Positions 38,821-50,774 of a DNA stretch of 64,000 nt are shown here, piece by piece; position 1 is the first letter of the stretch; each line of letters begins with the position of its first letter. Position numbers and translations under genes: made by a program. The notes beneath the pieces were generated by a model. It was not told the DNA's origin, did not search any database, and was given only the letters and a program-made list of their open reading frames with translations. Source of the DNA: Theionarchaea archaeon (GTDB lineage: Archaea; Methanobacteriota_B; Thermococci; Methanofastidiosales; SZ-28-30); assembly GCA_018992685.1 (NCBI GenBank), contig JACVGT010000018.1:128001-192000 (forward strand), read 5' to 3'.

Positions 38821-40482
38821 ATGCCTCTCATAACACTTGATAAACAGGATGTGCTTCAGCTTCTGGGAAAGACCGTATCGGATGATGATCTGGCCTACAA
38901 CATCTCCATGATGGGTACAGACCTGAGACAGGTGAAAGACACAATTGAGGTTGAAGTCTTCCCTGATCGACCTGACATGCTGTCCACGGAAGGATTCGTC
39001 ATGGCACTGGAGGGGTACCTTGGTATCAGGACAGGACTTCCAGACTTTCATGCTGCCGGCCCCAGCAATGCGAACGAATCTGAGTACTCTGCATATATTG
39101 ATGAGAAAGTGGCTACTGTGAGGCCCTATGCAGTGTGTGCTGCAATCAGGGACGTACATCTGTCTGATGGGGCAGTGAAGTCGCTGATGCAGGTTCAGGA
39201 GAAGCTGCACATAACTCACGGACGAAACAGAAAGAAGGTGGCCATAGGAGTGCACGACCTGGACAAGATAGCATTTCCCGTTACCTATACAACCCGTCCT
39301 CTGAATTTCGCGTTTGTCCCCCTGGAATGGTATACTGAATTGACCTTGAAGGAGATTCTAACCAAACACAAGAAAGGGATTGAATTCGCTCACCTGCTCG
39401 AAACCTACGCAGAATATCCTCTGTGGATTGATAAGAAGGGAACTGTCTTATCCATGCCCCCTATTATTAACTCTGAAGATACCAAAGTTGAAGAGGATAC
39501 TGAGAACCTCTTTCTGGATGTTACCGGGTACTCCCGGCTGGCTTTAGAACAGGCTCTGAACATACTGGTATGCAGTCTTGCAAGGCGGGGCGGAACCATT
39601 CACCCAGTACACGTCCATGAACAGGAAAAAGAACTCTGGTATCCTCACCTGACTCCCCAGGAAATGGAGGTTGATCTAGACTATGTCAACAGATGGCTGG
39701 GCCTCAGTCTATCCTGGGACCAGGTAAAGGGATATCTTGAACGGATGCGGTATTCACTGAAAGGACACATAGCAATGATACCACCCTACAGGGCAGACAT
39801 TCTTCACCCTGTGGATATCATAGAAGACATTGCCAAAGCCTATTGCCTAGACAAAATGGAACCTGTCATCCCAAAAGTTTCAACCATCGGTGAAGAGGAC
39901 CCTCTGGAGGTGTTTGTGAGAAAGGTTGCCTACTTGATGGTTGGATTCGGCCTGCTGGAAGTGAAGAACTATTACCTCACTTCACGGGAGTTCTTTTTGA
40001 AGACCCGGATTGGTGATGACGTTGTGGAAGTGGTAAATGCAATTACAGCTGAATACAATGTCTTGCGATCCTGGCTCCTCCCTGAGATGCTGTACACCCT
40101 CTCATCCAACAAACACCATGAATACCCGCAGAATATCTTTGAAGTGGGAGAGGTGGTGAAACCCTCTTCAAAAGCCCAGGAACGCACCAGAGAGGAATAT
40201 CATCTCGCTGTAGTGCTGTGCCATCCCAGAGCATCCTTCACCGAAGCAAAGGAAATCCTCAAAGCATTTACAAAGAATGTGCGAAACCCCTTCACTCTTG
40301 ATGTCACTGAACATCCTGCCTTTATTGAAGGACGATGCGGATCCATTATCATGGGAGAAAAAGTGGGAGTAATTGGTGAGGTAGCCCCTGAGGTCCTGCT
40401 GGCATGGGGCCTGGAAGTTCCTGCTGCATGTTTTGAGCTCGATCTGGGGAAGGTGCTTTCTGAGGTGACAGCAGTCACCTGA
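38821..40482 (+). CDS. pheT: Phenylalanine--tRNA ligase beta subunit
   Basis: PDRPDMLS, QEKLH...RKKVAIGVHD, MPPIINS, PPYRADILHPVDIIEDIA. Confidence 0.97.
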   Translation: MPLITLDKQDVLQLLGKTVSDDDLAYNISMMGTDLRQVKDTIEVEVFPDRPDMLSTEGFVMALEGYLGIRTGLPDFHAAGPSNANESEYSAYIDEKVATVRPYAVCAAIRDVHLSDGAVKSLMQVQEKLHITHGRNRKKVAIGVHDLDKIAFPVTYTTRPLNFAFVPLEWYTELTLKEILTKHKKGIEFAHLLETYAEYPLWIDKKGTVLSMPPIINSEDTKVEEDTENLFLDVTGYSRLALEQALNILVCSLARRGGTIHPVHVHEQEKELWYPHLTPQEMEVDLDYVNRWLGLSLSWDQVKGYLERMRYSLKGHIAMIPPYRADILHPVDIIEDIAKAYCLDKMEPVIPKVSTIGEEDPLEVFVRKVAYLMVGFGLLEVKNYYLTSREFFLKTRIGDDVVEVVNAITAEYNVLRSWLLPEMLYTLSSNKHHEYPQNIFEVGEVVKPSSKAQERTREEYHLAVVLCHPRASFTEAKEILKAFTKNVRNPFTLDVTEHPAFIEGRCGSIIMGEKVGVIGEVAPEVLLAWGLEVPAACFELDLGKVLSEVTAVT

Positions 40483-40957
40483 TTCTGGTGCCACAGAATC
40501 GGCAGAACTTGGCCGTGGGTTCTAACTCCTTGCCACACTTCTTGCAGGACAGAGATTCCTGAGGTACACGTGAGGAGATCAGTCCTTTCAATTTGTTGAA
40601 GGTGGGTTCATCAATTTCTCCCTGGGCCAGAGAGAGCCTAAGCTTCTGGAATGCTTCTTCTTCAGGCAAAGACAGAATTTCTTCTGTGAGAGATTTCTGA
40701 GCTGTGTGAGGGGAATCAGGGGACTCAACTCTTTCAGGTTCTTTACGCTCAACAGATTCCTCCCTGGATTCACCCGAACCCGTGCGGAACGCATCAATTT
40801 TCTCTGCGAGAATTTTTCTCACTTCAGTGGAAAACATGTCGGAGACAGCAGGGCGTATTTTGTCAGATACCTCCTCGATCAGTTTTTTCCTGACCTCGGC
40901 CTCCAGCAAATTCATGAACTCAGGGAGTTCAATCTCAATACACGTAGGTTCAGCCAT
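40475..40957 (-). CDS. SHOCT-like plus C-terminal zinc-ribbon protein
   Basis: KLRLSLAQGEIDEPTF (SHOCT-like); CKKCG...FCRFCG zinc ribbon. Confidence 0.75.
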   Translation of the reverse strand: MAEPTCIEIELPEFMNLLEAEVRKKLIEEVSDKIRPAVSDMFSTEVRKILAEKIDAFRTGSGESREESVERKEPERVESPDSPHTAQKSLTEEILSLPEEEAFQKLRLSLAQGEIDEPTFNKLKGLISSRVPQESLSCKKCGKELEPTAKFCRFCGTRIR

Positions 40958-41149
40958 GATGTCACTGCATGGCACAGGATAAAAACCTTTCGTAGGAACG
41001 AAGAAGGCACATATTGCTCAGAAATCAGCAAAATCGTTCAGTTGGAACCAGAAAGGAGATCAGCTGTTGTACGTATGCCTCCTGTATCATGACTGTCCTC
41101 TCAGGTTCATGACGCTGGCTACTTCATTAGCCCAACTCCTACCCAAAGC

Positions 41150-41202
41150 TTTATATAGTTTAACAATTATCACATAATAAATATCACATAATAATCGTGA
41201 TA
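41150..41202 (+). promoter_or_regulatory. TATA box followed by a putative operator (direct plus inverted repeat)
   Basis: TTTATATA at 41150-41157; TATCACATAATAA at 41168-41180 and 41182-41194; TATCAC-N9-GTGATA palindrome at 41182-41202. Confidence 0.6.
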
Positions 41203-41487
41203 CAACAAATGACAGAGAAGGTTGAACGAGAGATGAAGATGACTACCGCTGACGTTAAGGCTCTTCCCTACGAAATCAAGCGAAATCCTACGGCTCTGCT
41301 GATTCTGCTTTATTTGGCCGAGAATGGTGGGGCCAACTCAATCTGTTTTATTGCAGGTGAAATCGGATTCACGGAAGCAGCTGTTTCAAAAAGCGCCGAA
41401 AGACTACTAAAATATGATTTGATAGAGAAATCATATGGCAAAAGTGATTTAGGCAAAAGGAAGACTTTGATCAGACTGAAAAAGTAA
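41197..41487 (+). CDS. Winged-helix transcriptional regulator (MarR/ArsR-like)
   Basis: LLILLYL...IAGEIGFTEAAVSKSAERLLKYDLIEK...KRKTLIRL; real start may be the ATG at 41209 or 41232. Confidence 0.8.
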   Translation: MIQQMTEKVEREMKMTTADVKALPYEIKRNPTALLILLYLAENGGANSICFIAGEIGFTEAAVSKSAERLLKYDLIEKSYGKSDLGKRKTLIRLKK

Positions 41488-41511
41488 GAATTAGTAATAT
41501 GAGGTGATAAT

Positions 41512-42585
41512 GTGATTGTAGCAATCTTGGGAGCTGGTAATGGAGGTCAGGCTCTGGCCGGATACCTCTCCCTAAAAGGATTTTCCGTAAACCTATTCAA
41601 TCGGAGTGAGAAGAGAATCAGACACATTAAGAATGATGCAGGTGTTCATATACAGGGGCTTTTTGAGGAATTTGCCCCTCTAAATATCGTTACGACTGAC
41701 ATCAAGAAAGCACTTTCTGATGCTGACCTGGTCATGGTCGTGGTACCTGCTCAGGCGCACAAGCATGTTGCAGAAATCTGTGCTCCTCATCTGGAGGACG
41801 GCCAGGTTGTTGTTCTCAGCCCTGGACGTACGGGGGGCGCTTTAGAATTCAAGAAGACGCTGGATAAGAATGGGTTCTCAAAGAGAATATACCTTGCAGA
41901 AACTCAAACCTTTTTGTTCGTGAGCCGTGTGGTGAACAACAAGGCTAGAATCACAGGCACCAAGAACTCAGTTCCTGTGGCAGCTTTCCCCGCTTCAGAC
42001 ACGGACAGGGTGATGAGTATGTTGAGACAGGTTCATCCTTCTTTCGAGAAGGCAGAGAACGTGATGGAAACAAGTCTAGCCAACATAGGGGCCATTTTCC
42101 ATCCCTCGACTATGATTCTTAACATGGGCAGAATCGAATCAAGCCAAGATTTCAGCTACTATTTTGATGGGATTACGCCTTATGTGGCACGGTTTCTTGA
42201 GCGGATCGATAAGGAGAGGCAGCGGGTTGCTCGAGCTATCGGAGTTCAGACACTGTCTGCACGCCAGTGGCTGAAGAGAGTTTACAACGCTCAGGGAGAG
42301 ACCTTGTTTGAACGCATCCAGGACAATGGAAAATATCGAGGAGTAGGGTCTCCACAAACCCCGATGCATCGATACATCATGGAAGACATACCCACAGGGC
42401 TGGTGCCCATTGCATCACTTGGTAATCATCTGGGAGTACACGCCCCGGCAATTGACAGTGTCATTGGGATCGCCACCCATCTATATGGGATTGATTTTGA
42501 AGCAAAGGGAAGGACAGTCGAGAGCCTGGGTCTCGAAGGAATGAATAGCCGGCGGATGATAGAATACGTGACAAGAGGTGCATAG
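41512..42585 (+). CDS. NAD/NADP octopine/nopaline (opine) dehydrogenase family protein
   Basis: GAGNGG Rossmann motif, PGRTGGALEF, NIGAIFHP, RYIMEDIPTGLVP. Confidence 0.9.
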   Translation: MIVAILGAGNGGQALAGYLSLKGFSVNLFNRSEKRIRHIKNDAGVHIQGLFEEFAPLNIVTTDIKKALSDADLVMVVVPAQAHKHVAEICAPHLEDGQVVVLSPGRTGGALEFKKTLDKNGFSKRIYLAETQTFLFVSRVVNNKARITGTKNSVPVAAFPASDTDRVMSMLRQVHPSFEKAENVMETSLANIGAIFHPSTMILNMGRIESSQDFSYYFDGITPYVARFLERIDKERQRVARAIGVQTLSARQWLKRVYNAQGETLFERIQDNGKYRGVGSPQTPMHRYIMEDIPTGLVPIASLGNHLGVHAPAIDSVIGIATHLYGIDFEAKGRTVESLGLEGMNSRRMIEYVTRGA

Positions 42586-42586
42586 C

Positions 42587-44227
42587 ATGAGAAAGAGACT
42601 ACTTGGGGCGTCAATTGGAAGTTGCATTCATGTGGCAGGGGTTTTGAATTTTTTAGACCTTGCTGAAAAGCTAGGATATCAAACAAAATATATGGGACCC
42701 GCGGTTCGTGTTGAAGATCTCGTTGACGAGATCTTAGAATCTGATCCTGACATCATTGGGGTCTCGTATCGCCTGACCCCAGAGAATGCACAGGTGCTGT
42801 TTGAAGAATTGAAGAGAAGGATAGTGCAGTACAATATACAGAACAAGAGATGGATATTCGGGGGGACCAGACCAGTGTGTATTGTTGCTGAACGCTCGGG
42901 ACTTTTTGAAAGAGCCTTTGACGGGCTATCTACCATGGAGGACGCTATTTCATACTTAAAGTGCCAGGAAGTAACCCAGGAACAAGAGTACTATCCCCAG
43001 ACATTGATTGAACGTGTTTTTCTCAAGAAACCCTTTCCCATTCTACGGCACCACTTTGGATTACCCTCGCTGGAAGAAACGATTGACGGTATTCAGACGA
43101 TTGCTGAAGCTCAGGTGGTGGATGTAATCAGCATTGCTCCTGACCAGAATGCGCAGGAGAGCCTATTCCGTCCGGAAGAGATGACAGAAGAAACAGGTTC
43201 TGGAGGCGTTCCCTTCCGCAGTAAGGAAGATCTTGCGAGGATGTACAGGGCTTCCAGACGGGGGAACTACCCCCTCTTGCGATGCTATAGCGGGACGCGG
43301 GACCTGGTCAAGATGTCAGAGCTTCTCAAGGAATCGATCAACAATGCATGGACTGCCACTCCTTTGACCTGGTACAGTGTACTGGACGGAAGAAGTTGCA
43401 GGCCTTTGAAGGAAGCCATTTCCGAGAATCAGAAGAATATGACGTGGAATGCAGAAAGAGGAATTCCTGTGGAGGTTAATGAAGCCCATCAGTGGTCACT
43501 GAGAAACGCTCATGATGCTCTGGCTGTTGTCATGGCCTACCTTGCTGCCTACAACGCAAAGAAGATGGGTGTATCAACCTATGTGGCGCAATACATGTTC
43601 AACACGCCCCTGGGGACATCTCCTTTGATGGATGTGGCCAAGATGCTTGCCAAGATTGAACTGATCGAATCTCTACACGATCAAACGTTCACTTCGCTTC
43701 GACAGGTGCGGGTGGCTGGACTGCTGAGTTATCCTGTGGACACAGACTCTGCCATAGGGCAGCTCGCCTCTGCAGTCAATATAGGAATGAGCATTCACCC
43801 TGATATTGTACATGCTGTATCATACAGTGAAGCAGATCATGCAGCAACCTCTGAGGACGTTATCAGGACTTCGAAGATTGCAAAACGTGTTATCCAGAAC
43901 TGTCTCATGGGCATGCCCGATGCAGCGTCTGACCCCAGAGTGATTCAGAGAAAGAACCAGTTGGTAGAGGAAGCTCAGATCCTCCTTAATGCCATCAGGA
44001 CTCTGGGGGACAGTGTCAGAGAATCGTTCACTGATCCACGGGTTCTGGAGGAAGCTGTGAGAAGTGGGCTGCTCGATGCTCCTCAGTTGAAAGGCAATCC
44101 CGTTGCTAAAGGTGAAATCGAAACACAGATGGTCAATGGGGCATGCTATGCCGTGAATGGGGATCAAATCATGACAGAATGGGAGCGAACAGAAAGACTG
44201 ATGGAGGATGTTATTCGTGAATATTAA
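42587..44227 (+). CDS. Cobalamin-binding-domain protein with a large C-terminal (probably TIM-barrel) domain
   Basis: CIHVAG (DxHxxG variant), VSYRL and FGGT B12-binding motifs; C-terminal RHHFG, YSGT, NEAHQWSLR, QYMFNTP. Confidence 0.8.
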   Translation: MRKRLLGASIGSCIHVAGVLNFLDLAEKLGYQTKYMGPAVRVEDLVDEILESDPDIIGVSYRLTPENAQVLFEELKRRIVQYNIQNKRWIFGGTRPVCIVAERSGLFERAFDGLSTMEDAISYLKCQEVTQEQEYYPQTLIERVFLKKPFPILRHHFGLPSLEETIDGIQTIAEAQVVDVISIAPDQNAQESLFRPEEMTEETGSGGVPFRSKEDLARMYRASRRGNYPLLRCYSGTRDLVKMSELLKESINNAWTATPLTWYSVLDGRSCRPLKEAISENQKNMTWNAERGIPVEVNEAHQWSLRNAHDALAVVMAYLAAYNAKKMGVSTYVAQYMFNTPLGTSPLMDVAKMLAKIELIESLHDQTFTSLRQVRVAGLLSYPVDTDSAIGQLASAVNIGMSIHPDIVHAVSYSEADHAATSEDVIRTSKIAKRVIQNCLMGMPDAASDPRVIQRKNQLVEEAQILLNAIRTLGDSVRESFTDPRVLEEAVRSGLLDAPQLKGNPVAKGEIETQMVNGACYAVNGDQIMTEWERTERLMEDVIREY

Positions 44228-44993
44228 TGCAGAATTACTGAAAGAACACCTGATTGACTTTATCAGTGGCGAAGTGGCCAAATCTCCCTTCGACAAGGTT
44301 GTTATCGGTATTTCGGGAGGGATCGATTCTGCTGTGGTTGCATACTTGGCCGCTGAAGCCTTGGGAAAAAGGAATGTCATTGGAATCTTAATGCCGTACA
44401 GGACAATGTCTGAAGAGAACAAAGAGGATGCGTCAGCTGTTATTGACGATCTGGGAATACCTTATGTTGAGGTGGATATTTCTCCCATGGTGGACGCTTT
44501 CAAAGTCCTGGTAGATGACACCGACAAGAGACGACTTGGGAGCAAAATGGTCAGAGAACGTATGAGCATTCTGTACTACTATGCAGACAGGTATAAGGCT
44601 GCAGTCTTGGGAACTAGCAACAAGTCTGAAGACCTCTTGGGATATTTCACCAATCATGGAGATTCTGCCTGGGATATTAACCCAATCTCGGGATTATTCA
44701 AGACTCAGGTTATCATGCTAGGTCTGGAACTGGGAGTTCCTGAACGTATTGTGGAGAAGAAGTCAACTGCTGATTTCTGGGTCGGTCAGACAGATGAGGA
44801 GGAATTCGGATTCACCTATTTCGAAGCCGACACCATACTGCATCAGATTGAGAAAGGATATTCCGCAGAAGACCTGGTAGACATAGGACTTGATGAACAG
44901 GTAGTCAGGAAGGTTCTTGAAAGAGTGGATAAAACTGCCCACAAGAGAGTTCCTCCTTCGATACCACAATTGCCTCGTGAGGTACTCAGATGA
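44208..44993 (+). CDS. nadE: NH3-dependent NAD+ synthetase or NadE-like amide ligase
   Basis: SGGIDSAVV PP-loop, RERM, GTSNKSE..GYFT..GD, KTQV, GQTDEEE. Confidence 0.8.
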   Translation: MLFVNINAELLKEHLIDFISGEVAKSPFDKVVIGISGGIDSAVVAYLAAEALGKRNVIGILMPYRTMSEENKEDASAVIDDLGIPYVEVDISPMVDAFKVLVDDTDKRRLGSKMVRERMSILYYYADRYKAAVLGTSNKSEDLLGYFTNHGDSAWDINPISGLFKTQVIMLGLELGVPERIVEKKSTADFWVGQTDEEEFGFTYFEADTILHQIEKGYSAEDLVDIGLDEQVVRKVLERVDKTAHKRVPPSIPQLPREVLR

Positions 44994-45940
44994 AGGTCGG
45001 AATTGTGTACAGCCAGAGGTGCATAGAACGATTGGAGAAAAAAATCTATGCTGATCACCCCGAAATGAAGGGAAGAACACTCCAGGCTATCTACAGGGCG
45101 CTGGACGACGTGTCCGAGCCAGAGTTCATAAACGAAGATGGAGCTATTATCCCTGCTTTGAGGAGGATGGATGCAGTATTCAACTTGAGCACAGGTTTGA
45201 GAGGAGAAAGCAGGCAGGCACACATTCCAGCCCTTCTGGAACGACTGGAAATACCCTATACGGGATCAGGAGTCCTGACGCATGCGATGGGGCTGAACAA
45301 GCCGAAATCTAAGGAAGTTTTCATAGCCAATGGTGTCCCAACCCCTCCCTTCGAGATTCTGGATACCCTTCAGATAACCCGTAAGGATCTTGATGGCATA
45401 GATTTCCCAATGGTGTTGAAACCCACGAATGGAGGTTCCAGCCGAGGCGTAAGAATAGCGGACTCCCTTACCCAGTTGAAAAAGGCGGTCAGAGAGGCTA
45501 TTCCCAAGTACGGCAGAGTGATGATTGAGCCTTTCGTCGAGGGAAGGGAACTAACAGTGGGGATTCTGGGAAATGAATCACCAGACGTACTTCCCATTTT
45601 GGAAACTGATTTTGAAGATCTTGATACAGTCGTTTACAATTTTGAAGTGAAAGCACGCATCGGGTATACCACAGAACATACATTCCCGGCTCAATTGACT
45701 CCTCAAGAGAGAGAAACAGTGTGTCAGGTGGCGATGAAGGCATACAGAGCGCTCCTCTGCAGGGATTATGCCCGTGTCGACATCCGGTTAGAGGACGGCG
45801 TCCCGTACGTACTTGAGATTAACACGCTTCCTGGACTCTACGTTGACTACAGTGCGATCCCCACCATGGCCCGAGTACGGGGATTGCCCTTTGAAACACT
45901 CATCAGAAGAATATACTTGTATGCTATGGAGCGCGAATGA
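44990..45940 (+). CDS. D-Ala--D-Ala ligase-like ATP-grasp enzyme
   Basis: IPYTGSG, KPTNGGSSRGV, EGRELTVG, YARVDIR, LEINTLPG. Confidence 0.88.
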   Translation: MKVGIVYSQRCIERLEKKIYADHPEMKGRTLQAIYRALDDVSEPEFINEDGAIIPALRRMDAVFNLSTGLRGESRQAHIPALLERLEIPYTGSGVLTHAMGLNKPKSKEVFIANGVPTPPFEILDTLQITRKDLDGIDFPMVLKPTNGGSSRGVRIADSLTQLKKAVREAIPKYGRVMIEPFVEGRELTVGILGNESPDVLPILETDFEDLDTVVYNFEVKARIGYTTEHTFPAQLTPQERETVCQVAMKAYRALLCRDYARVDIRLEDGVPYVLEINTLPGLYVDYSAIPTMARVRGLPFETLIRRIYLYAMERE

Positions 45941-46153
45941 CCTGAGTTCTCGCTCGAGGAACAATGCCAACCAGAGAGTGTCACACAAGTCCTGAGTTCT
46001 CTGGCTGCTTGTTCTCACCTGTACAAAGTTAAAACCCTGAAACCAGTCTTCTTCTTGAGGTCAGACTCATGGTTGTGACGGAGATAGTCTCCTGCACTCG
46101 GCAATTTCGTGTCGCCAAACAGGATCTGAGGTAATGTACCATTCTGGTGTCGT

Positions 46154-46786
46154 CTACGCCAATTTTCTGGCCTTCGAGACCCTGAATACGTCAGCATTAC
46201 ATCCTTGGGCTCTGCACTCAATTTCCTCCACTGTATGAGGATGACCTGTGATCCACTCCACCAATCCATAGAGAAGTCCAGCATAGATATTGCATACAGG
46301 AGACTGGGAGACTAATCCTTCGCTTTCGGTGCTGCTCTTTTCGATGATCAGAAAGTGATCTTCTTCCTCCCTGACCTCAATGCGCGGCCTGTGTTCAGAG
46401 GGCAATCTTTTCTCTGATTCTTCTGCGTATTTTTCCAGAGCAAGACGCATTCTTCTGTTCTCTGGCAGAAGGTGTGATGCTGCAAGAAGTGCTTTTGCCA
46501 TTGTACCTGCCTCCACGACTCCTACCCGCACAAATTCGCGGCCAGCTCTGAACTGGAGGGCGCGAGCACCCTTCTCACCAAACAGCTCAGTCAGGCCTGC
46601 TACTAGGCTCCGAACGTCCTGCAGAGGGATTTCTATGCCATCATTCTGGGGAGGCAATTCCTCAATGTATTTCTGCAGGCGGGCGAAGTTAAGAATCGAT
46701 TTCAGTCCGCCTGGGCCAACAGTATTCTCCAATGTCTCTAGGAAGATTCTCATTGTGAGATTGTCCATTTTTCGCTCATCAGACAT
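46154..46786 (-). CDS. V4R domain protein (paralog of 7897-8538)
   Basis: PVCNIYAGLL...VEEIECRAQGCNADVFRVSK. Confidence 0.88.
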   Translation of the reverse strand: MSDERKMDNLTMRIFLETLENTVGPGGLKSILNFARLQKYIEELPPQNDGIEIPLQDVRSLVAGLTELFGEKGARALQFRAGREFVRVGVVEAGTMAKALLAASHLLPENRRMRLALEKYAEESEKRLPSEHRPRIEVREEEDHFLIIEKSSTESEGLVSQSPVCNIYAGLLYGLVEWITGHPHTVEEIECRAQGCNADVFRVSKARKLA

Positions 46787-46833
46787 GATACCACCAATTT
46801 GAACATGAATCCTCTCATTCTGACTGTTCTGGT

Positions 46834-47205
46834 CTACACCAGCTTCGCTACCTCTTCTGCCGTTCTCTTCATGTCCAGGAAGACCAGCCCCAACTTGGCG
46901 TCTTTTCTTGCCAGTGCAGTCAGGACGGCATTCTCACCTGATGCCATTAGCACCACATACCCGTTCTCTCCCTTAACATAGACTTCTGAGAGGTCTCCCC
47001 TTGCTAGCTCATTTGCTGTCCTCTCTCCCAATGATAACATGGCAGCAGACATAGCAGCAACTCGGTCCTCTTCCACATCTCGGGGTAGAGCGGATGCTAT
47101 CATCAATCCATCCACAGAAACGACGGCAGAAGCTTCAATGTCAGGTGTTGTAGCTTCCAAATCTTTTAGAAGGTCTGTGAGAGCTTCAGTTTTGGGTCTT
47201 GCCAT
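46834..47205 (-). CDS. Roadblock/LC7 protein (near-identical paralog of 8547-8921)
   Basis: Same core sequence; AAGGTGA SD before the ATG at 47205. Confidence 0.93.
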   Translation of the reverse strand: MARPKTEALTDLLKDLEATTPDIEASAVVSVDGLMIASALPRDVEEDRVAAMSAAMLSLGERTANELARGDLSEVYVKGENGYVVLMASGENAVLTALARKDAKLGLVFLDMKRTAEEVAKLV

Positions 47206-47740
47206 TCTTGTCACCTTTTTTCTTTCTCATTTGAATTGAGATCAGGTTGTGACAGTAGTCTTTTTGACAGAGCCAGGGTAGTCAACTATCTGTCACAGCC
47301 ACTTCCTACCTATGCTCTCATTGTATATGAATCCTGTTTTTCGTTATTCAAGCAACTTTTCCAACCTTTTTCTGCAGAGATACGTATGTCACTTCATATC
47401 AATGGTAGAGCCAACTCTATCACAATACAGGCAAACTAAGCTCAGCATTTGAACGTGTCAGTTACATCATCAATTGCCTGAACATACTGTGATTTCACAC
47501 TTCCTTGTTCAAATGGAGTTGAAAGGTGAGAGACATCCATGTAAAATGAAGATTCCAAAATGCTGAAACAGAACCCTGGTAAGCTCTCATGGCGGCAAAA
47601 TGGCACATATTAGTGAGATCGAAAAGCCAGATGTCTACGAAAGGGCAACAGCCAGTATTGGCACACGACTGGTAGACAAGTCATGAAGGGTATCATTTAA
47701 ATTGTGGCGATCAATAGTCAAGCTGTTAGGAGGTCTAACT

Positions 47741-48934
47741 ATGTGGTATTTCTACTCGCCGATCGTGGTTTTCGGGGAAGATGCCCTGGATCACCTGGAA
47801 ACCATTGAAGGAAAAAGATGCTTTATAGTGACAGACCCAGGTATCAAGAGCCTGGGATTGCTGGAAATCCTCACCAGAAAATTGGAACGATTGGGAAGGA
47901 GCTGGGAAGTCTTTTCTGATGTTGAACCTGATCCCAGAGAAGAGACTGTGTATAGAGCTGCTGAGCAATGCAAAAAATATAATCCAGATCTCATCATTGG
48001 AATTGGAGGAGGTTCGTCGCTTGATGCAGCAAAAGGTGTCTGGGTCTTATATGAACATCCAGAATTCAAGAGTGTGGACGAGATCCATCCTTTTCAGAAT
48101 TTGAATACTGGGAAGAAAGCCCGGTTGATCGCGATTCCTACGACCTCGGGAACAGGTGCTGAAACAACGTGGGCTGTGGTCATTACCAGAACCAAAGAAG
48201 GGAAAACCCTGAAACTTGAGCAGGGAAACAAAGGAGTTATCCCCACGTATGCTGTGGTTGACCCTGTTTTCACCAAGGGAATGCCTCCAGGCCTGACAGC
48301 TGGAACAGGGTTTGATGCGCTGGCCCACAGTATGGAGTGCTTGATATCCACCTGGCAGAACATGTTTTCGGATGCCTTGGCCATTGGAGCTATCCGTCTC
48401 ATTCTTGAGTATCTACCGCTGGCGGTGAAAGATGGAGATAATATGAAAGCTCGAGAAGCACTGCATAATGCAGCCAGCATGGGGGGACTGGCATTCGGAA
48501 ACGCACAGGTGACATTGGGGCACGCCATGGCTCATGCTCTGGGCGCTGTTTTTCATATTCCTCACGGCACTGCGGTGGGGTTGTGTCTGCCCTATGCCAT
48601 GGAATACTGCATTCACGATCCTGAAAGTGACAGCTCAATTGAGAAACTTGCCCTGACTGCAAAATCAGTGGGGGTTGCTCAATGGTCAGATGACAATTCT
48701 GGAGCTGCCGAGAAGCTCGTGGAGAAGGTGAAGTGGCTGCAGAAAGAGACGGGACTACCCGTCTCGTTGCAGGCCTTGGATGTCTCGAGGGAAGATTTGG
48801 ATGAGAACCTGGATACCCTCATCACCCTGTGTATGGAATCAGCCAGTACCGTGATGACTCCTCGGAATATTGGCGTCTCGGAATTTAGGAAGCTCTTTGA
48901 CTATATGTACTCTGGAAGGAAAGTCGACTTCTGA
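47741..48934 (+). CDS. Iron-containing alcohol dehydrogenase
   Basis: GGGSSLDAAK, PTTSGTGAE, DALAH, HAMAH, HG metal ligands; AGGAGG SD before the ATG at 47741. Confidence 0.93.
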   Translation: MWYFYSPIVVFGEDALDHLETIEGKRCFIVTDPGIKSLGLLEILTRKLERLGRSWEVFSDVEPDPREETVYRAAEQCKKYNPDLIIGIGGGSSLDAAKGVWVLYEHPEFKSVDEIHPFQNLNTGKKARLIAIPTTSGTGAETTWAVVITRTKEGKTLKLEQGNKGVIPTYAVVDPVFTKGMPPGLTAGTGFDALAHSMECLISTWQNMFSDALAIGAIRLILEYLPLAVKDGDNMKAREALHNAASMGGLAFGNAQVTLGHAMAHALGAVFHIPHGTAVGLCLPYAMEYCIHDPESDSSIEKLALTAKSVGVAQWSDDNSGAAEKLVEKVKWLQKETGLPVSLQALDVSREDLDENLDTLITLCMESASTVMTPRNIGVSEFRKLFDYMYSGRKVDF

Positions 48935-48944
48935 AGGTGATATC

Positions 48945-50774
48945 ATGAAAGGATTCCGCGGGAAGATCTTGGTGGTGGACTTGTCCTCAGAGACCATTAA
49001 GACTGAACTGGTGAATGAAGAGATTGCCAGGGCGTTTCTGGGTGGAGCTGGATATGCTGTTCGATACCTCTATGATCTTGTGGATGAGGGTACGGACCCT
49101 TTAGGGCCAGAAAATCCTCTTTTTTTCATGACGGGACCTCTCACCGGGACTCTTGCTCCTTCTGCAGGCCGGTGGGTGGTATGTGCCAAGTCGCCACTCA
49201 GCCAGATCTGGGGAGAATCCAACTGTGGAGGCTTTTTCGGAGCTGAGCTAAAATTCGCCGGCTTTGATGGCATTCTGGTGAAGGGAACTTCTGAACATCC
49301 TGTATACGTGTGGATTACCAACGATGAACAAGACATAATGGATGCATCTGATCTGTGGGGGAACGGTATCTATGAAACCCACTCCAGACTGAAACAAGCA
49401 GTTTCGGACAAACTAGCACGAGTAGCCTGTATCGGTCCTGCAGGGGAAAACCTGGTAAAATATGCCAGCATTGGATCTGAAGAACGAGCAGCGGGAAGGA
49501 CAGGGATGGGAGCTGTCATGGGCAGCAAGAACCTGAAGGCTGTGGTGGTCAGGGGAAAACTACGGGACATTGACCTCGCACATCCCGACCAGTATAATCA
49601 GCTGGCAAAGACCATCAAGAATGAGATCATGGATATCTTTACTGCCCAGATGATGGGTGAACTGGGAACGTCAGGTGGTGTTGATATGTACAATTATAGA
49701 GGACAGCTTCCGGTCAAGTACTGGACGAGAGGTGAATTTGACGGTGCCTATGATATCTCGGGTTCCACCATGAAAGAGACAATTCTGGTACGTCCCCGTC
49801 ACTGTTTTGCCTGCCCCATTGGGTGTGGGCGAGTGGTCAACGTGAAAGAAGGGAGATACAAGACCCCTGGTGAGGTGGAAGGGCCTGAGTACGAAACGGT
49901 GGCGGGATTTGGATCCCAACTCCTCAACAATAACCTAGAAGCCATAGCCAAGGCTAACTATCTGTGCAATGACTACGGGATTGACACCATCTCCTCAAGT
50001 GTTATTATTTCTTTTGTATACTACCTCGTGGAAAAAGGAATTGTTTCTGCTGGAGACCTTGATGGAATCAACCCCCGGTTTGGAGACTTTGATCCTGCAC
50101 TGGAGTTCATTTCCAGGATTGCCCAGCGAAAAGGAATTGGGAATCTGCTTGCTGAAGGTGCTCAAGCTGTTGGCAGCCACTTTGGCGTTTCCCGTGACGA
50201 GATTGCCACCGTTGACGGCATGGAGGTAACATATCATGATCTGCGCTCCACGTATGGGATGGCCATTGCGTATGCTACAGGGCCCCGAGGACCTGGGCAT
50301 AACTCCTGTGATATGTACATGACCTCCACGGGGCAGCCCTTTCCAGAACTGGACATTCCTGTTCCAGATCACTATGATGAGAGTTGTGTCATGACTGATG
50401 CCTGCGCCCGCCTCCAGGATTATCGAGCTTTCTACAGTACTGTGATCTTCTGCATGTTCTGCAACCCCGCTCCCTCTTCCATTGGTGACCTCATTTCGTT
50501 GGCCACTGGGTGGGACATTGGAATACCGGAGATCAAGATCATCGGAGAGCGAGTCTTCACCATGAAGAGGCTGTTCAACATCAAGATGGGCCTCTCTGGA
50601 GACTGGGACACCATTCCTGAGATATTGACAGCGCCGGTGTCTGATGGAGGGTCAGCAGGGAGGAGCCCCGACTGGAAAAAGATGCTCAGACAGTATTATG
50701 AATTTCGAAAATGGGACCCGAAGACGGGTATTCCTTCAAAAGAAAAACTGGAAGAACTGGGAATCCATGTGTAG
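48945..50774 (+). CDS. aor: Tungsten-dependent aldehyde:ferredoxin oxidoreductase family protein
   Basis: KSPL, ESNCGG, IGPAGEN, GRTGMGAVMGSKNLKA, CFACPIGC, GPEYET, GIDTIS. Confidence 0.93.
   Translation: MKGFRGKILVVDLSSETIKTELVNEEIARAFLGGAGYAVRYLYDLVDEGTDPLGPENPLFFMTGPLTGTLAPSAGRWVVCAKSPLSQIWGESNCGGFFGAELKFAGFDGILVKGTSEHPVYVWITNDEQDIMDASDLWGNGIYETHSRLKQAVSDKLARVACIGPAGENLVKYASIGSEERAAGRTGMGAVMGSKNLKAVVVRGKLRDIDLAHPDQYNQLAKTIKNEIMDIFTAQMMGELGTSGGVDMYNYRGQLPVKYWTRGEFDGAYDISGSTMKETILVRPRHCFACPIGCGRVVNVKEGRYKTPGEVEGPEYETVAGFGSQLLNNNLEAIAKANYLCNDYGIDTISSSVIISFVYYLVEKGIVSAGDLDGINPRFGDFDPALEFISRIAQRKGIGNLLAEGAQAVGSHFGVSRDEIATVDGMEVTYHDLRSTYGMAIAYATGPRGPGHNSCDMYMTSTGQPFPELDIPVPDHYDESCVMTDACARLQDYRAFYSTVIFCMFCNPAPSSIGDLISLATGWDIGIPEIKIIGERVFTMKRLFNIKMGLSGDWDTIPEILTAPVSDGGSAGRSPDWKKMLRQYYEFRKWDPKTGIPSKEKLEELGIHV

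Follow-up and report, generated by a model that had tools for sequence, protein, structure and literature searches.

The DNA analysed here is a window of 64,000 nucleotides from a Theionarchaea archaeon (GenBank assembly GCA_018992685.1, contig JACVGT010000018.1, positions 128,001 to 192,000 of the forward strand) that holds a compact cluster of five genes: a winged-helix (wHTH) regulator, an opine dehydrogenase (ODH), a protein with a B12-binding domain (hereafter the B12 protein), a NadE-type NAD+ synthetase and an ATP-grasp ligase of the Ddl family (Table 1). The wHTH and ODH genes are 24 nt apart, the listed start of the B12 gene overlaps ODH by 8 nt, NadE overlaps the B12 gene by 20 nt and the Ddl-like gene overlaps NadE by 4 nt. 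The B12 gene is likely to start at 42587, 1 nt past the ODH stop codon, a position that fits the length of the database copy of the protein (P0001, 546 aa). A second genome of the same genus (G001) carries the same five genes in unchanged order at 79-86% identity, so that the arrangement is real and not a chance set of open reading frames. To judge from the layout the five genes are almost certainly co-transcribed, NadE included, for which its overlaps of 20 and 4 nt and the conservation of the arrangement in G001 speak. A first-pass annotation of this DNA had described five tightly coupled or overlapping genes behind their own wHTH regulator, which the spacings and the gene order in G001 bear out, and its family assignments for ODH, the B12 protein, NadE and the Ddl-like ATP-grasp enzyme were upheld by profile and PDB matches.

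Table 1. Genes and control region of the cluster, in window positions.
Feature	Position	Strand	Length	Description
Putative archaeal promoter and direct repeat	41150..41194	+		Read from sequence
wHTH	41197..41487	+	96 aa	MarR-like
ODH	41512..42585	+	357 aa	PF02317; CENDH-like; first half of the core pair
B12 protein	42578..44227 (as listed)	+	549 aa	Fused B12-binding domain and predicted GlmE-like TIM barrel; second half of the core pair
NadE	44208..44993	+	261 aa	NH3-dependent NAD+ synthetase
Ddl-like	44990..45940	+	316 aa	Ddl-family ATP-grasp ligase

Comparison across genomes showed that the conserved unit consists only of ODH and the fused, glutamate-mutase-like B12 protein, not of the five genes. 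Our set of 41 related genomes counted the source genome itself (G000; a 3.03 Mb assembly in 45 contigs, 91% complete) and two others of its genus, g1, among them G001. The B12 protein was found in 19 of the 41, source included; leaving the source aside, its carriers were 1/2 genomes in g1, 2/4 in g7 and 15/17 in g4, a genus of small Methanofastidiosum-like genomes, with none in the other seven genera. Fifteen relatives' loci were fetched, 14 of them from outside the source genus, and ODH directly adjoins the B12 gene in all 15. Further afield the B12 family is large, with more than 6,200 proteins in a first search and, after clustering at 50% identity, 726 representatives at E <= 1e-3 and 137 at E <= 1e-30. 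We took as a distant set the best 80 of at least 563 loci carrying the B12 gene, from Thorarchaeota, other archaea, Bacillota, Bacteroidota, Ignavibacteria, Aminicenantes, Actinomycetota, Armatimonadota, Gemmatimonadota and others, and scored the presence of neighbours by tblastn. ODH adjoins the B12 gene in 74 of these 80; among the six loci without it, three have the B12 gene at a contig edge (L035, L071 and L036) and three have flanks (L041, L058 and L073). In two of the cluster representatives, P0134 and P0184, the B12 protein is fused in frame with the C-terminal part of an Octopine_DH protein. The window locus is a lineage-specific extension of this ODH/B12 module, which is already known from the literature discussed below. 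The first-pass proposal that the four enzymes form one pathway gives way at this point, since only the ODH-B12 pair is conserved (15/15 and 74/80). The neighbourhood analysis seeded with the B12 protein, which that annotation had itself suggested, found NadE beside the pair in 0/80 distant loci and in 0/14 relatives' loci outside the genus, G001 being the only relative with it, and the Ddl-like gene in 5/80 distant loci, so that co-conservation is absent beyond the genus for the former and sporadic for the latter.

The first member of the pair, ODH, matches PF02317 (2e-46; 158 bits, the cut-off being 30) and has Rossmann-domain matches across residues 3-102. It aligns with N-(1-D-carboxyethyl)-L-norvaline dehydrogenase (CENDH, PDB 1bg6) at 8e-76 over residues 3-346 and shares about 40% identity with a true N-carboxyalkyl-amino-acid dehydrogenase. 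With CENDH and octopine dehydrogenase it shares a full-length match, the GxGxxG nucleotide-binding motif and the catalytic His/Arg/Asp set. In the phmmer alignment the positions facing His202, Arg292 and Asp297 of CENDH, which we take to be the numbering of its catalytic residues, are all three identical, and the corresponding H197, R287 and D292 are invariant across 23 pair-linked ODHs. Going by these features, the protein most probably works as an opine-type or imine oxidoreductase. It differs from CENDH and octopine dehydrogenase in that the gene of the window-type enzyme is strictly coupled to that of a B12 enzyme. The source genome also encodes a second Octopine_DH paralogue of 369 aa (L215:7389-9753, minus strand, at about 181.4-183.8 kb of contig C5), whose gene overlaps that of a pyridoxal-phosphate enzyme of the PALP family (443 aa), is divergent from a D-serine dehydratase/alanine racemase-like gene and lies near genes for a fumarate-reductase-like flavoprotein and Fe-S proteins; no B12 gene is present at that locus.

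The B12 protein matches PF02310 (34.6 bits, cut-off 32.1) and, weakly, PF06368 (17.7 bits, cut-off 26.6), and a PDB profile search found solved relatives for its N-terminal B12 domain only, with GlmE not aligned. An AF2 model of the protein, made with an alignment of 26 sequences, reached a pLDDT of 90.5, and its top Foldseek match is glutamate mutase E (6h9e_B and 1cb7_B; E ~1e-17, TM 0.57-0.65), followed by lysine-5,6- and ornithine-4,5-aminomutases and then by acyl-CoA mutases including methylmalonyl-CoA mutase. By its modelled fold, then, the protein would carry a GlmE-type TIM barrel, whereas by sequence the match to PF06368 stays below the cut-off. The cobalt-ligand motif reads G-x-C-V-H-V-A-G (CxHxxG), with the His and the Gly each kept in 24/26 sequences and a Cys at the canonical Asp position in 23/26; S-Y-R-L and F-G-G, which would answer to the SxL and GG motifs of B12 domains, are also present. 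Among the 50%-cluster representatives P0151, P0157 and P0158 are fused to MutL, a partner that resembles the glutamate mutase reactivase, and P0133 is fused to an ATP-grasp domain of the glutathione-synthetase/RimK type. In the two g7 loci L016 and L017 a CobA/BtuR adenosyltransferase gene adjoins the operon upstream. Because of the MutL fusions and this adenosyltransferase neighbour we infer that the B12 protein is probably an adenosylcobalamin (AdoCbl) radical isomerase. It resembles glutamate mutase (GlmS/GlmE, that is MutS/MutE; 1cb7, 6h9e) in combining a predicted B12 Rossmann domain with a predicted TIM barrel and in having relatives fused to MutL-type reactivases, and differs from it in forming one chain whose N-terminal part is the B12 domain, in reading CxHxxG against DxHxxG, and in having ODH rather than methylaspartase as its partner. 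A PF06368 search of five carrier genomes gave weak matches only, two of which were the B12 genes themselves and one of which (in G041, L205/L206) was unrelated to the queries, and a distant paralogue of about 600 aa (P0171), sought in five carrier genomes, led back to the main family only. A prediction of the complex between the B12 protein and ODH scored 0.00, which gives no verdict and is uninformative either way.

Beyond ODH, the commonest enzyme partner is an AsnB-like protein. Its gene lies beside the B12 gene in 22/80 distant loci, nearly always directly downstream, and L017 has one as well, one gene past B12. The protein, of about 447 aa, has an Asn_synthase domain and a weak GATase_7 match, and for its synthetase domain E. 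coli AsnB is the nearest match (1e-41), with beta-lactam synthetase behind it (1e-17). Only 2/23 AsnB-like proteins begin with Met-Cys, which would supply the Cys2 nucleophile of a glutaminase; in the others Ala, Ser, Pro or Gly stands there. In g7 the genes run in the order CobA/BtuR adenosyltransferase, MarR-like regulator, ODH, B12, a D-glutamate-cyclase-like gene and the AsnB-like gene. A search of the source genome for the D-glutamate-cyclase-like family (PF14336) gave no match and was uninformative, the control genomes being equally silent. In four distant loci (L049, L052, L069 and L070, three of them metagenome-assembled genomes of Aminicenantes) nadB (L-aspartate oxidase) and nadC (quinolinate phosphoribosyltransferase) stand divergently upstream of the pair, a second association with NAD biosynthesis besides the window NadE that may be coincidence or lineage synteny.

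The Ddl-like protein matches PF07478 (3e-41, 141.8 bits) and falls below all NCBIfam Ddl cut-offs (195 bits against 243 for NF002378, 181.5 against 245.65 for TIGR01205). Of its ATP-grasp residues in the RxD and ExN motifs R262, D264 and N278 are invariant and E276 nearly so, and its alignment to PDB structures of Ddl begins only at about residue 56. We file it as a Ddl-family ATP-grasp enzyme and not as a D-Ala-D-Ala ligase because of the scores below cut-off and because its archaeal host has no murein context. It is the only strong Ddl-family match in the source genome and was found in 2/41 related genomes; its nearest relatives outside the Theionarchaea are Bacillota proteins named "ATP-grasp / Ddl family" (39-45% identity). 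In the five distant loci with such a gene near the pair it overlaps the B12 stop codon (L078), stands 29 nt upstream of the point where the ODH alignment begins (L083) or is 0.7-4 kb away (L098, L102 and L106). Seen from the Ddl side, none of 80 metagenome loci that encode relatives at 31-42% identity carries a gene for ODH, B12, NadE or an AsnB-like protein in its flanks, and no riboswitch was found in eight of these loci. The protein is thus one of a broad subfamily that for the most part has no link with the pair. The link between Ddl and the pair is real but sporadic, made up of the five distant loci, the source genus and one ATP-grasp fusion. Many of the Ddl-like relatives in these metagenome loci (L123-L202) are tandem pairs of two diverged Ddl-family genes without ODH or B12 nearby.

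Regulation of the pair was approached by Rfam scans at gathering thresholds, which covered 42 of the 80 distant loci, all bacterial, the other 38 lying outside the scan. In eight of the 42 a riboswitch for cyclic di-AMP (c-di-AMP; RF00379) lies on the same strand 27-485 nt 5' of ODH: in Caldanaerobacter (L039, 117.5 bits), Thermoanaerobacter (L040, 111.4 bits), Fervidicola (L111, 105.1 bits), an uncultured bacterium (L078, 101.5 bits), a member of the Bacillota (L077, 92 bits), one of the Armatimonadota (L059, 87.5 bits), Syntrophothermus (L109, 69.1 bits) and one of the Limnochordales (L074, 38.1 bits, borderline against a gathering score of 38). The leader in L039 runs from a promoter (11 of 12 consensus positions matched) through the aptamer and then a terminator hairpin ending in a T tail to ODH, and in L078 the riboswitch is followed by ODH, B12 and the Ddl-like gene. 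A c-di-AMP riboswitch upstream of the pair is a new regulatory result of this work. The class is tied, in the portion of the source used here, to transporters of K+ and of amino acids, to remodelling of the cell wall and to osmotic-shock genes (PMC7266159). Genes for channels stand near the pair too, of the ClC+CBS type in 6 loci and of the MscS type in 5, with the order ODH-B12-MscS in L084 and ODH-B12-AsnB-like-MarC-ClC in L067 and L079. The source genome encodes a DAC-domain diadenylate cyclase, and in the window a MarR-like protein with a repeat-bearing promoter takes the place of the riboswitch, so that a c-di-AMP riboswitch link for the archaeal locus would hold by homology only. In Lutispora thermophila an FMN riboswitch (L083:9730-9844, plus strand) lies directly 3' of the B12 gene and presumably controls the next gene, not the pair.

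These results lead us to favour, tentatively, the reading that the pair turns a glutamate-type amino acid into a compatible solute, or serves osmoadaptation in some other way, and that it is extended here by lineage-specific genes. An osmotic role is suggested because of the c-di-AMP riboswitches upstream of the pair and the ClC and MscS channel neighbours, and the riboswitches in 8/42 bacterial loci lend independent support to the compatible solute that had been among the products first suggested for this operon. The mutase would carry out on a glutamate-type amino acid, or on an N-carboxyalkyl derivative of one, a radical 1,2-rearrangement that depends on AdoCbl, and ODH would make or break a C-N bond with NAD(P)H, by an opine-type reductive condensation or an imine reduction, giving a small organic solute for osmotic adaptation. 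In many lineages an ATP-dependent carboxylate-activating enzyme encoded downstream, usually AsnB-like and mostly without the glutaminase Cys, sometimes an ATP-grasp ligase, would presumably amidate, cyclise or ligate this product to a neutral solute. In the theionarchaeal genus the operon carries a MarR-like regulator and a Ddl-like ATP-grasp enzyme that probably ligates the product to an amino acid, with NadE most likely just the cell's NAD synthetase co-transcribed with the operon. We speculate further, with distinctly less confidence, that the pair is the core of a new B12-dependent compatible-solute route in which a methyl-branched or N-carboxyalkyl amino acid is neutralised by amidation, lactam formation or ligation, with expression switched on in bacteria when c-di-AMP falls and governed in Theionarchaea by the MarR-like repressor, and with the NadE-type enzyme recruited in place of the Cys-less AsnB-like protein.

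Several observations weigh against an osmotic role or against parts of the scheme. What speaks for the role is regulation and gene neighbourhood; of the 42 bacterial loci scanned, 34 had no c-di-AMP riboswitch, no RNA family, RF00379 included, was matched in window 40000-47500, and the nearness of ClC and MscS genes is in part a matter of lineage synteny within the Bacteroidota and Ignavibacteria. In one metagenome-assembled genome of the Bacillota it is a fluoride riboswitch that stands ahead of ODH (at about 6901): RF01734 scores 50.3 bits there, with a gathering score of 34 (L065:6691-6752, plus strand). The c-di-AMP regulon includes cell-wall genes, which leaves room for a role in the cell envelope, and the pair stands alone in the small Methanofastidiosum-like genomes (g4, 15/17), which would also fit a central metabolic step. 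As to chemistry, the Asp of the canonical DxHxxG is replaced by Cys in the B12 family, and by sequence the B12 domain is nearer to the corrinoid proteins of methyltransferases (4jgi, 1e-6) than to GlmS (2e-3), which keeps methyl transfer in play. Finally, G001 holds a long Gln-dependent NadE besides the short one of the operon, so that the short form may do more than housekeeping.

This last point bears on the alternative that survives best, in which ODH, the B12 protein, NadE and the Ddl-like ligase act in one dedicated pathway and NadE, filling the slot of the AsnB-like protein, amidates a pathway carboxylate instead of nicotinic acid adenine dinucleotide. We regard it as unlikely, despite some points that speak for it: the reading frames overlap by 20 and 4 nt, NadE takes the position that the AsnB-like gene has in 22/80 loci, and both proteins are carboxylate-adenylating PP-loop enzymes; most AsnB-like proteins lack the glutaminase Cys, and the window NadE is likewise of the ammonia type. 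Moreover the short NadE appears to be a genus-specific addition that travels with the cluster, because G001 has both the long and the short form, and in G002, a genome that is only 84% complete, the long form was found but neither the short NadE nor a B12 or Ddl-like gene. The long, Gln-dependent form (about 530-560 aa, passing NF010588) is present in G001, G002, G003 and G016 (families f1 and f2), and only the short form was found in the source genome. On the other side, the window NadE passes the NAD+ synthase equivalog NF010587 (304.9 bits, cut-off 255), carries the PP-loop motif GISGGIDSAV (SGGxDS) and matches the NH3-dependent NAD+ synthetase 2e18 nearly full length at 1e-54. It is also the only strong NAD_synthase match in the source genome, and would therefore have to supply the cell's NAD unless a gene for the long form falls within the approximately 9% of the genome that is unassembled; its absence from beside the pair in all 80 distant loci counts against the single pathway as well. 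We thus think it quite likely that NadE is a canonical NAD synthetase riding in the operon, and rather doubt that it also replaces the AsnB-like amidating enzyme. The first-pass view of NadE as the pathway's amide ligase largely fails on these same grounds, its canonical scores, its being the only copy found in the source genome and its absence beside the pair in the distant loci. That NadE is an unrelated neighbour by chance of position was rejected, the overlaps and the conservation in G001 speaking for co-transcription. The five genes should accordingly not be annotated as one pathway, and NadE keeps its annotation as NAD synthetase.

The pair might instead perform a central amino-acid conversion and not belong to an osmolyte route, an alternative that we also hold to be unlikely, if only slightly more so. 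It could take glutamate via 3-methylaspartate and oxidative deamination to 2-oxobutyrate for isoleucine, or 2-oxoglutarate via 2-hydroxyglutarate to 3-methylmalate, or be a step in amino-acid fermentation. The closeness of the predicted fold to glutamate mutase would suit such a role, as would the lack of accessory ligases around the pair in 15/17 small Methanofastidiosum-like genomes and in many anaerobic fermenters, the genes for His and NAD biosynthesis that neighbour it in some lineages, and the AsnC/Lrp-type regulators that adjoin it in 4 Bacteroidota loci. A c-di-AMP riboswitch, however, is unexpected for amino-acid biosynthesis, and neither a T-box nor an amino-acid riboswitch was found in the 42 scanned loci; AsnB-like and ATP-grasp partners are ill-suited to a keto-acid route, and the identity of ODH to a true N-carboxyalkyl-amino-acid dehydrogenase points away from it.

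Less probable still is a role in the envelope or in peptides of D-amino acids, whereby an unusual (D-)amino acid would be built into the wall or other peptides by the Ddl-like or AsnB-like enzyme. The cell-wall remodelling genes of the c-di-AMP riboswitch regulon (PMC7266159, as far as the part used here goes) are in keeping with it, and so are the genes for Ddl-like and AsnB-like proteins and, in 4 loci, an M20 peptidase near the pair, a weak match to an M15 peptidase as fusion partner of the B12 protein in P0139 and the D-glutamate-cyclase-like gene in L017. Yet the pair is common in murein-free archaea (Theionarchaea, Methanofastidiosum-like genomes and Thorarchaeota), and about 70% of loci have no ligase or peptidase gene adjoining it. 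An opine-type metallophore like staphylopine or pseudopaline, another of the products first suggested, is very improbable: the fold of ODH is that of the enzymes forming metallophore opines and a cobalt-dependent partner might hint at metals, but no nicotianamine-synthase-like gene and no conserved exporter or importer were present among the gene clusters found in at least two loci, and the riboswitch senses c-di-AMP, not metal.

The association of the two core genes has been reported before. Zhang, Rodionov, Gelfand and Gladyshev (Zhang et al. 2009, BMC Genomics 10:78; PMC2667541) predicted a new family of proteins dependent on B12 whose gene, in the part of that paper used here, always adjoins a pfam02317 octopine/nopaline dehydrogenase gene, and in several organisms genes for D-Ala-D-Ala ligase and asparagine synthase are close by; the same part lists 11 bacteria in four phyla and no archaea, and proposes no function. 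The distant N-terminal B12-binding domain and the neighbours given there match those found here, and the range differs, our set including also Theionarchaea, Methanofastidiosum-like genomes, Thorarchaeota and many bacterial phyla. Relative to that portion of the 2009 paper, what is new is the predicted fold resembling GlmE, the motif CxHxxG, the fusions to MutL and to an ATP-grasp domain, the AsnB-like partner without the Cys and the riboswitch for c-di-AMP. Our literature searches found no characterisation of the B12 family or of the pair since 2009, no paper joining octopine dehydrogenase with glutamate mutase or opine dehydrogenase with adenosylcobalamin, none joining the c-di-AMP/ydaO riboswitch with octopine/opine dehydrogenase (published gene lists of the riboswitch regulon lay outside the search) and nothing relevant on mutases of Methanofastidiosa. 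The gene association is thus in print and the function is not. The first-pass statement that no characterised pathway has this gene set stands in so far as none was found in the literature, and has to be qualified in that the neighbours were already described in 2009, as the cited part of that paper attests.

Two known systems offer working comparisons for the proposed solute route. The pathway to the osmolyte NAGGN uses the amidotransferase AsnO together with Ngg, which has an ATP-grasp domain. There, as proposed here, an ATP-grasp enzyme and an enzyme of the AsnB family between them convert an anionic amino acid to a solute that is a neutral amide, and the process is under osmotic control; the present module differs in having no GNAT domain, no orthology to that pathway and a core of ODH and B12 mutase, so that NAGGN serves as a working analogy only. 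Pyrrolysine biosynthesis combines in PylB, PylC and PylD a rearrangement of the glutamate-mutase type, a ligation by a Ddl-family ATP-grasp enzyme and an NAD-dependent dehydrogenase, the same three kinds of step as may be read from the window operon. PylB, however, is a radical-SAM enzyme and not B12-dependent, PylD is not of the Octopine_DH family, and there is no PylS or tRNA-Pyl context here. A pyrrolysine cluster was ruled out as an identity of the window operon, there being no radical-SAM PylB and ODH not being PylD-like.

From a wider point of view the B12 family is among the few widespread putative cobalamin enzymes without an assigned reaction, and it extends across Asgard archaea, Theionarchaea, relatives of methanogens and many anaerobic bacterial phyla. 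The link to the c-di-AMP riboswitch makes the module directly testable in cultured thermophiles. If the osmolyte reading were correct, a new AdoCbl-dependent reaction would come to light, perhaps along with a new osmolyte, and the B12 need of anaerobes would have a further reason.

The control region of the window operon lies 5' of the wHTH gene and has a TATA-like box, TTTATATA, at 41150-41157. Between this box and the wHTH start stands an exact direct repeat, ATCACATAATAA, in two copies (41169-41180 and 41183-41194) with a 2-nt spacer, a possible candidate operator for autoregulation by the wHTH protein. The true start of that protein is probably an ATG at 41233 or 41239. Its own matches to MarR and MarR_2 are weak and below cut-off, whereas its homologue in L016 (70% identical) passes MarR_2 with 30.7 bits against a cut-off of 27; homologues at 70-79% identity lie 5' of ODH in L015, L016 and L017 only, that is in G001 and two g7 genomes.

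The genes next 3' of the operon, V4R and Roadblock, are convergent with it. Between pheT and the cluster lies a gene on the minus strand (window 40475-40975) for a protein of 166 aa with a C-terminal zinc ribbon (DUF7575-like), which is 68% identical in G001. On the plus strand, at window 47702-50774, a gene for an Fe-alcohol dehydrogenase overlaps one for an aldehyde:ferredoxin oxidoreductase (AOR); the two also adjoin the cluster in G001, at 83-86% identity, and probably form a unit of aldehyde/alcohol fermentation.

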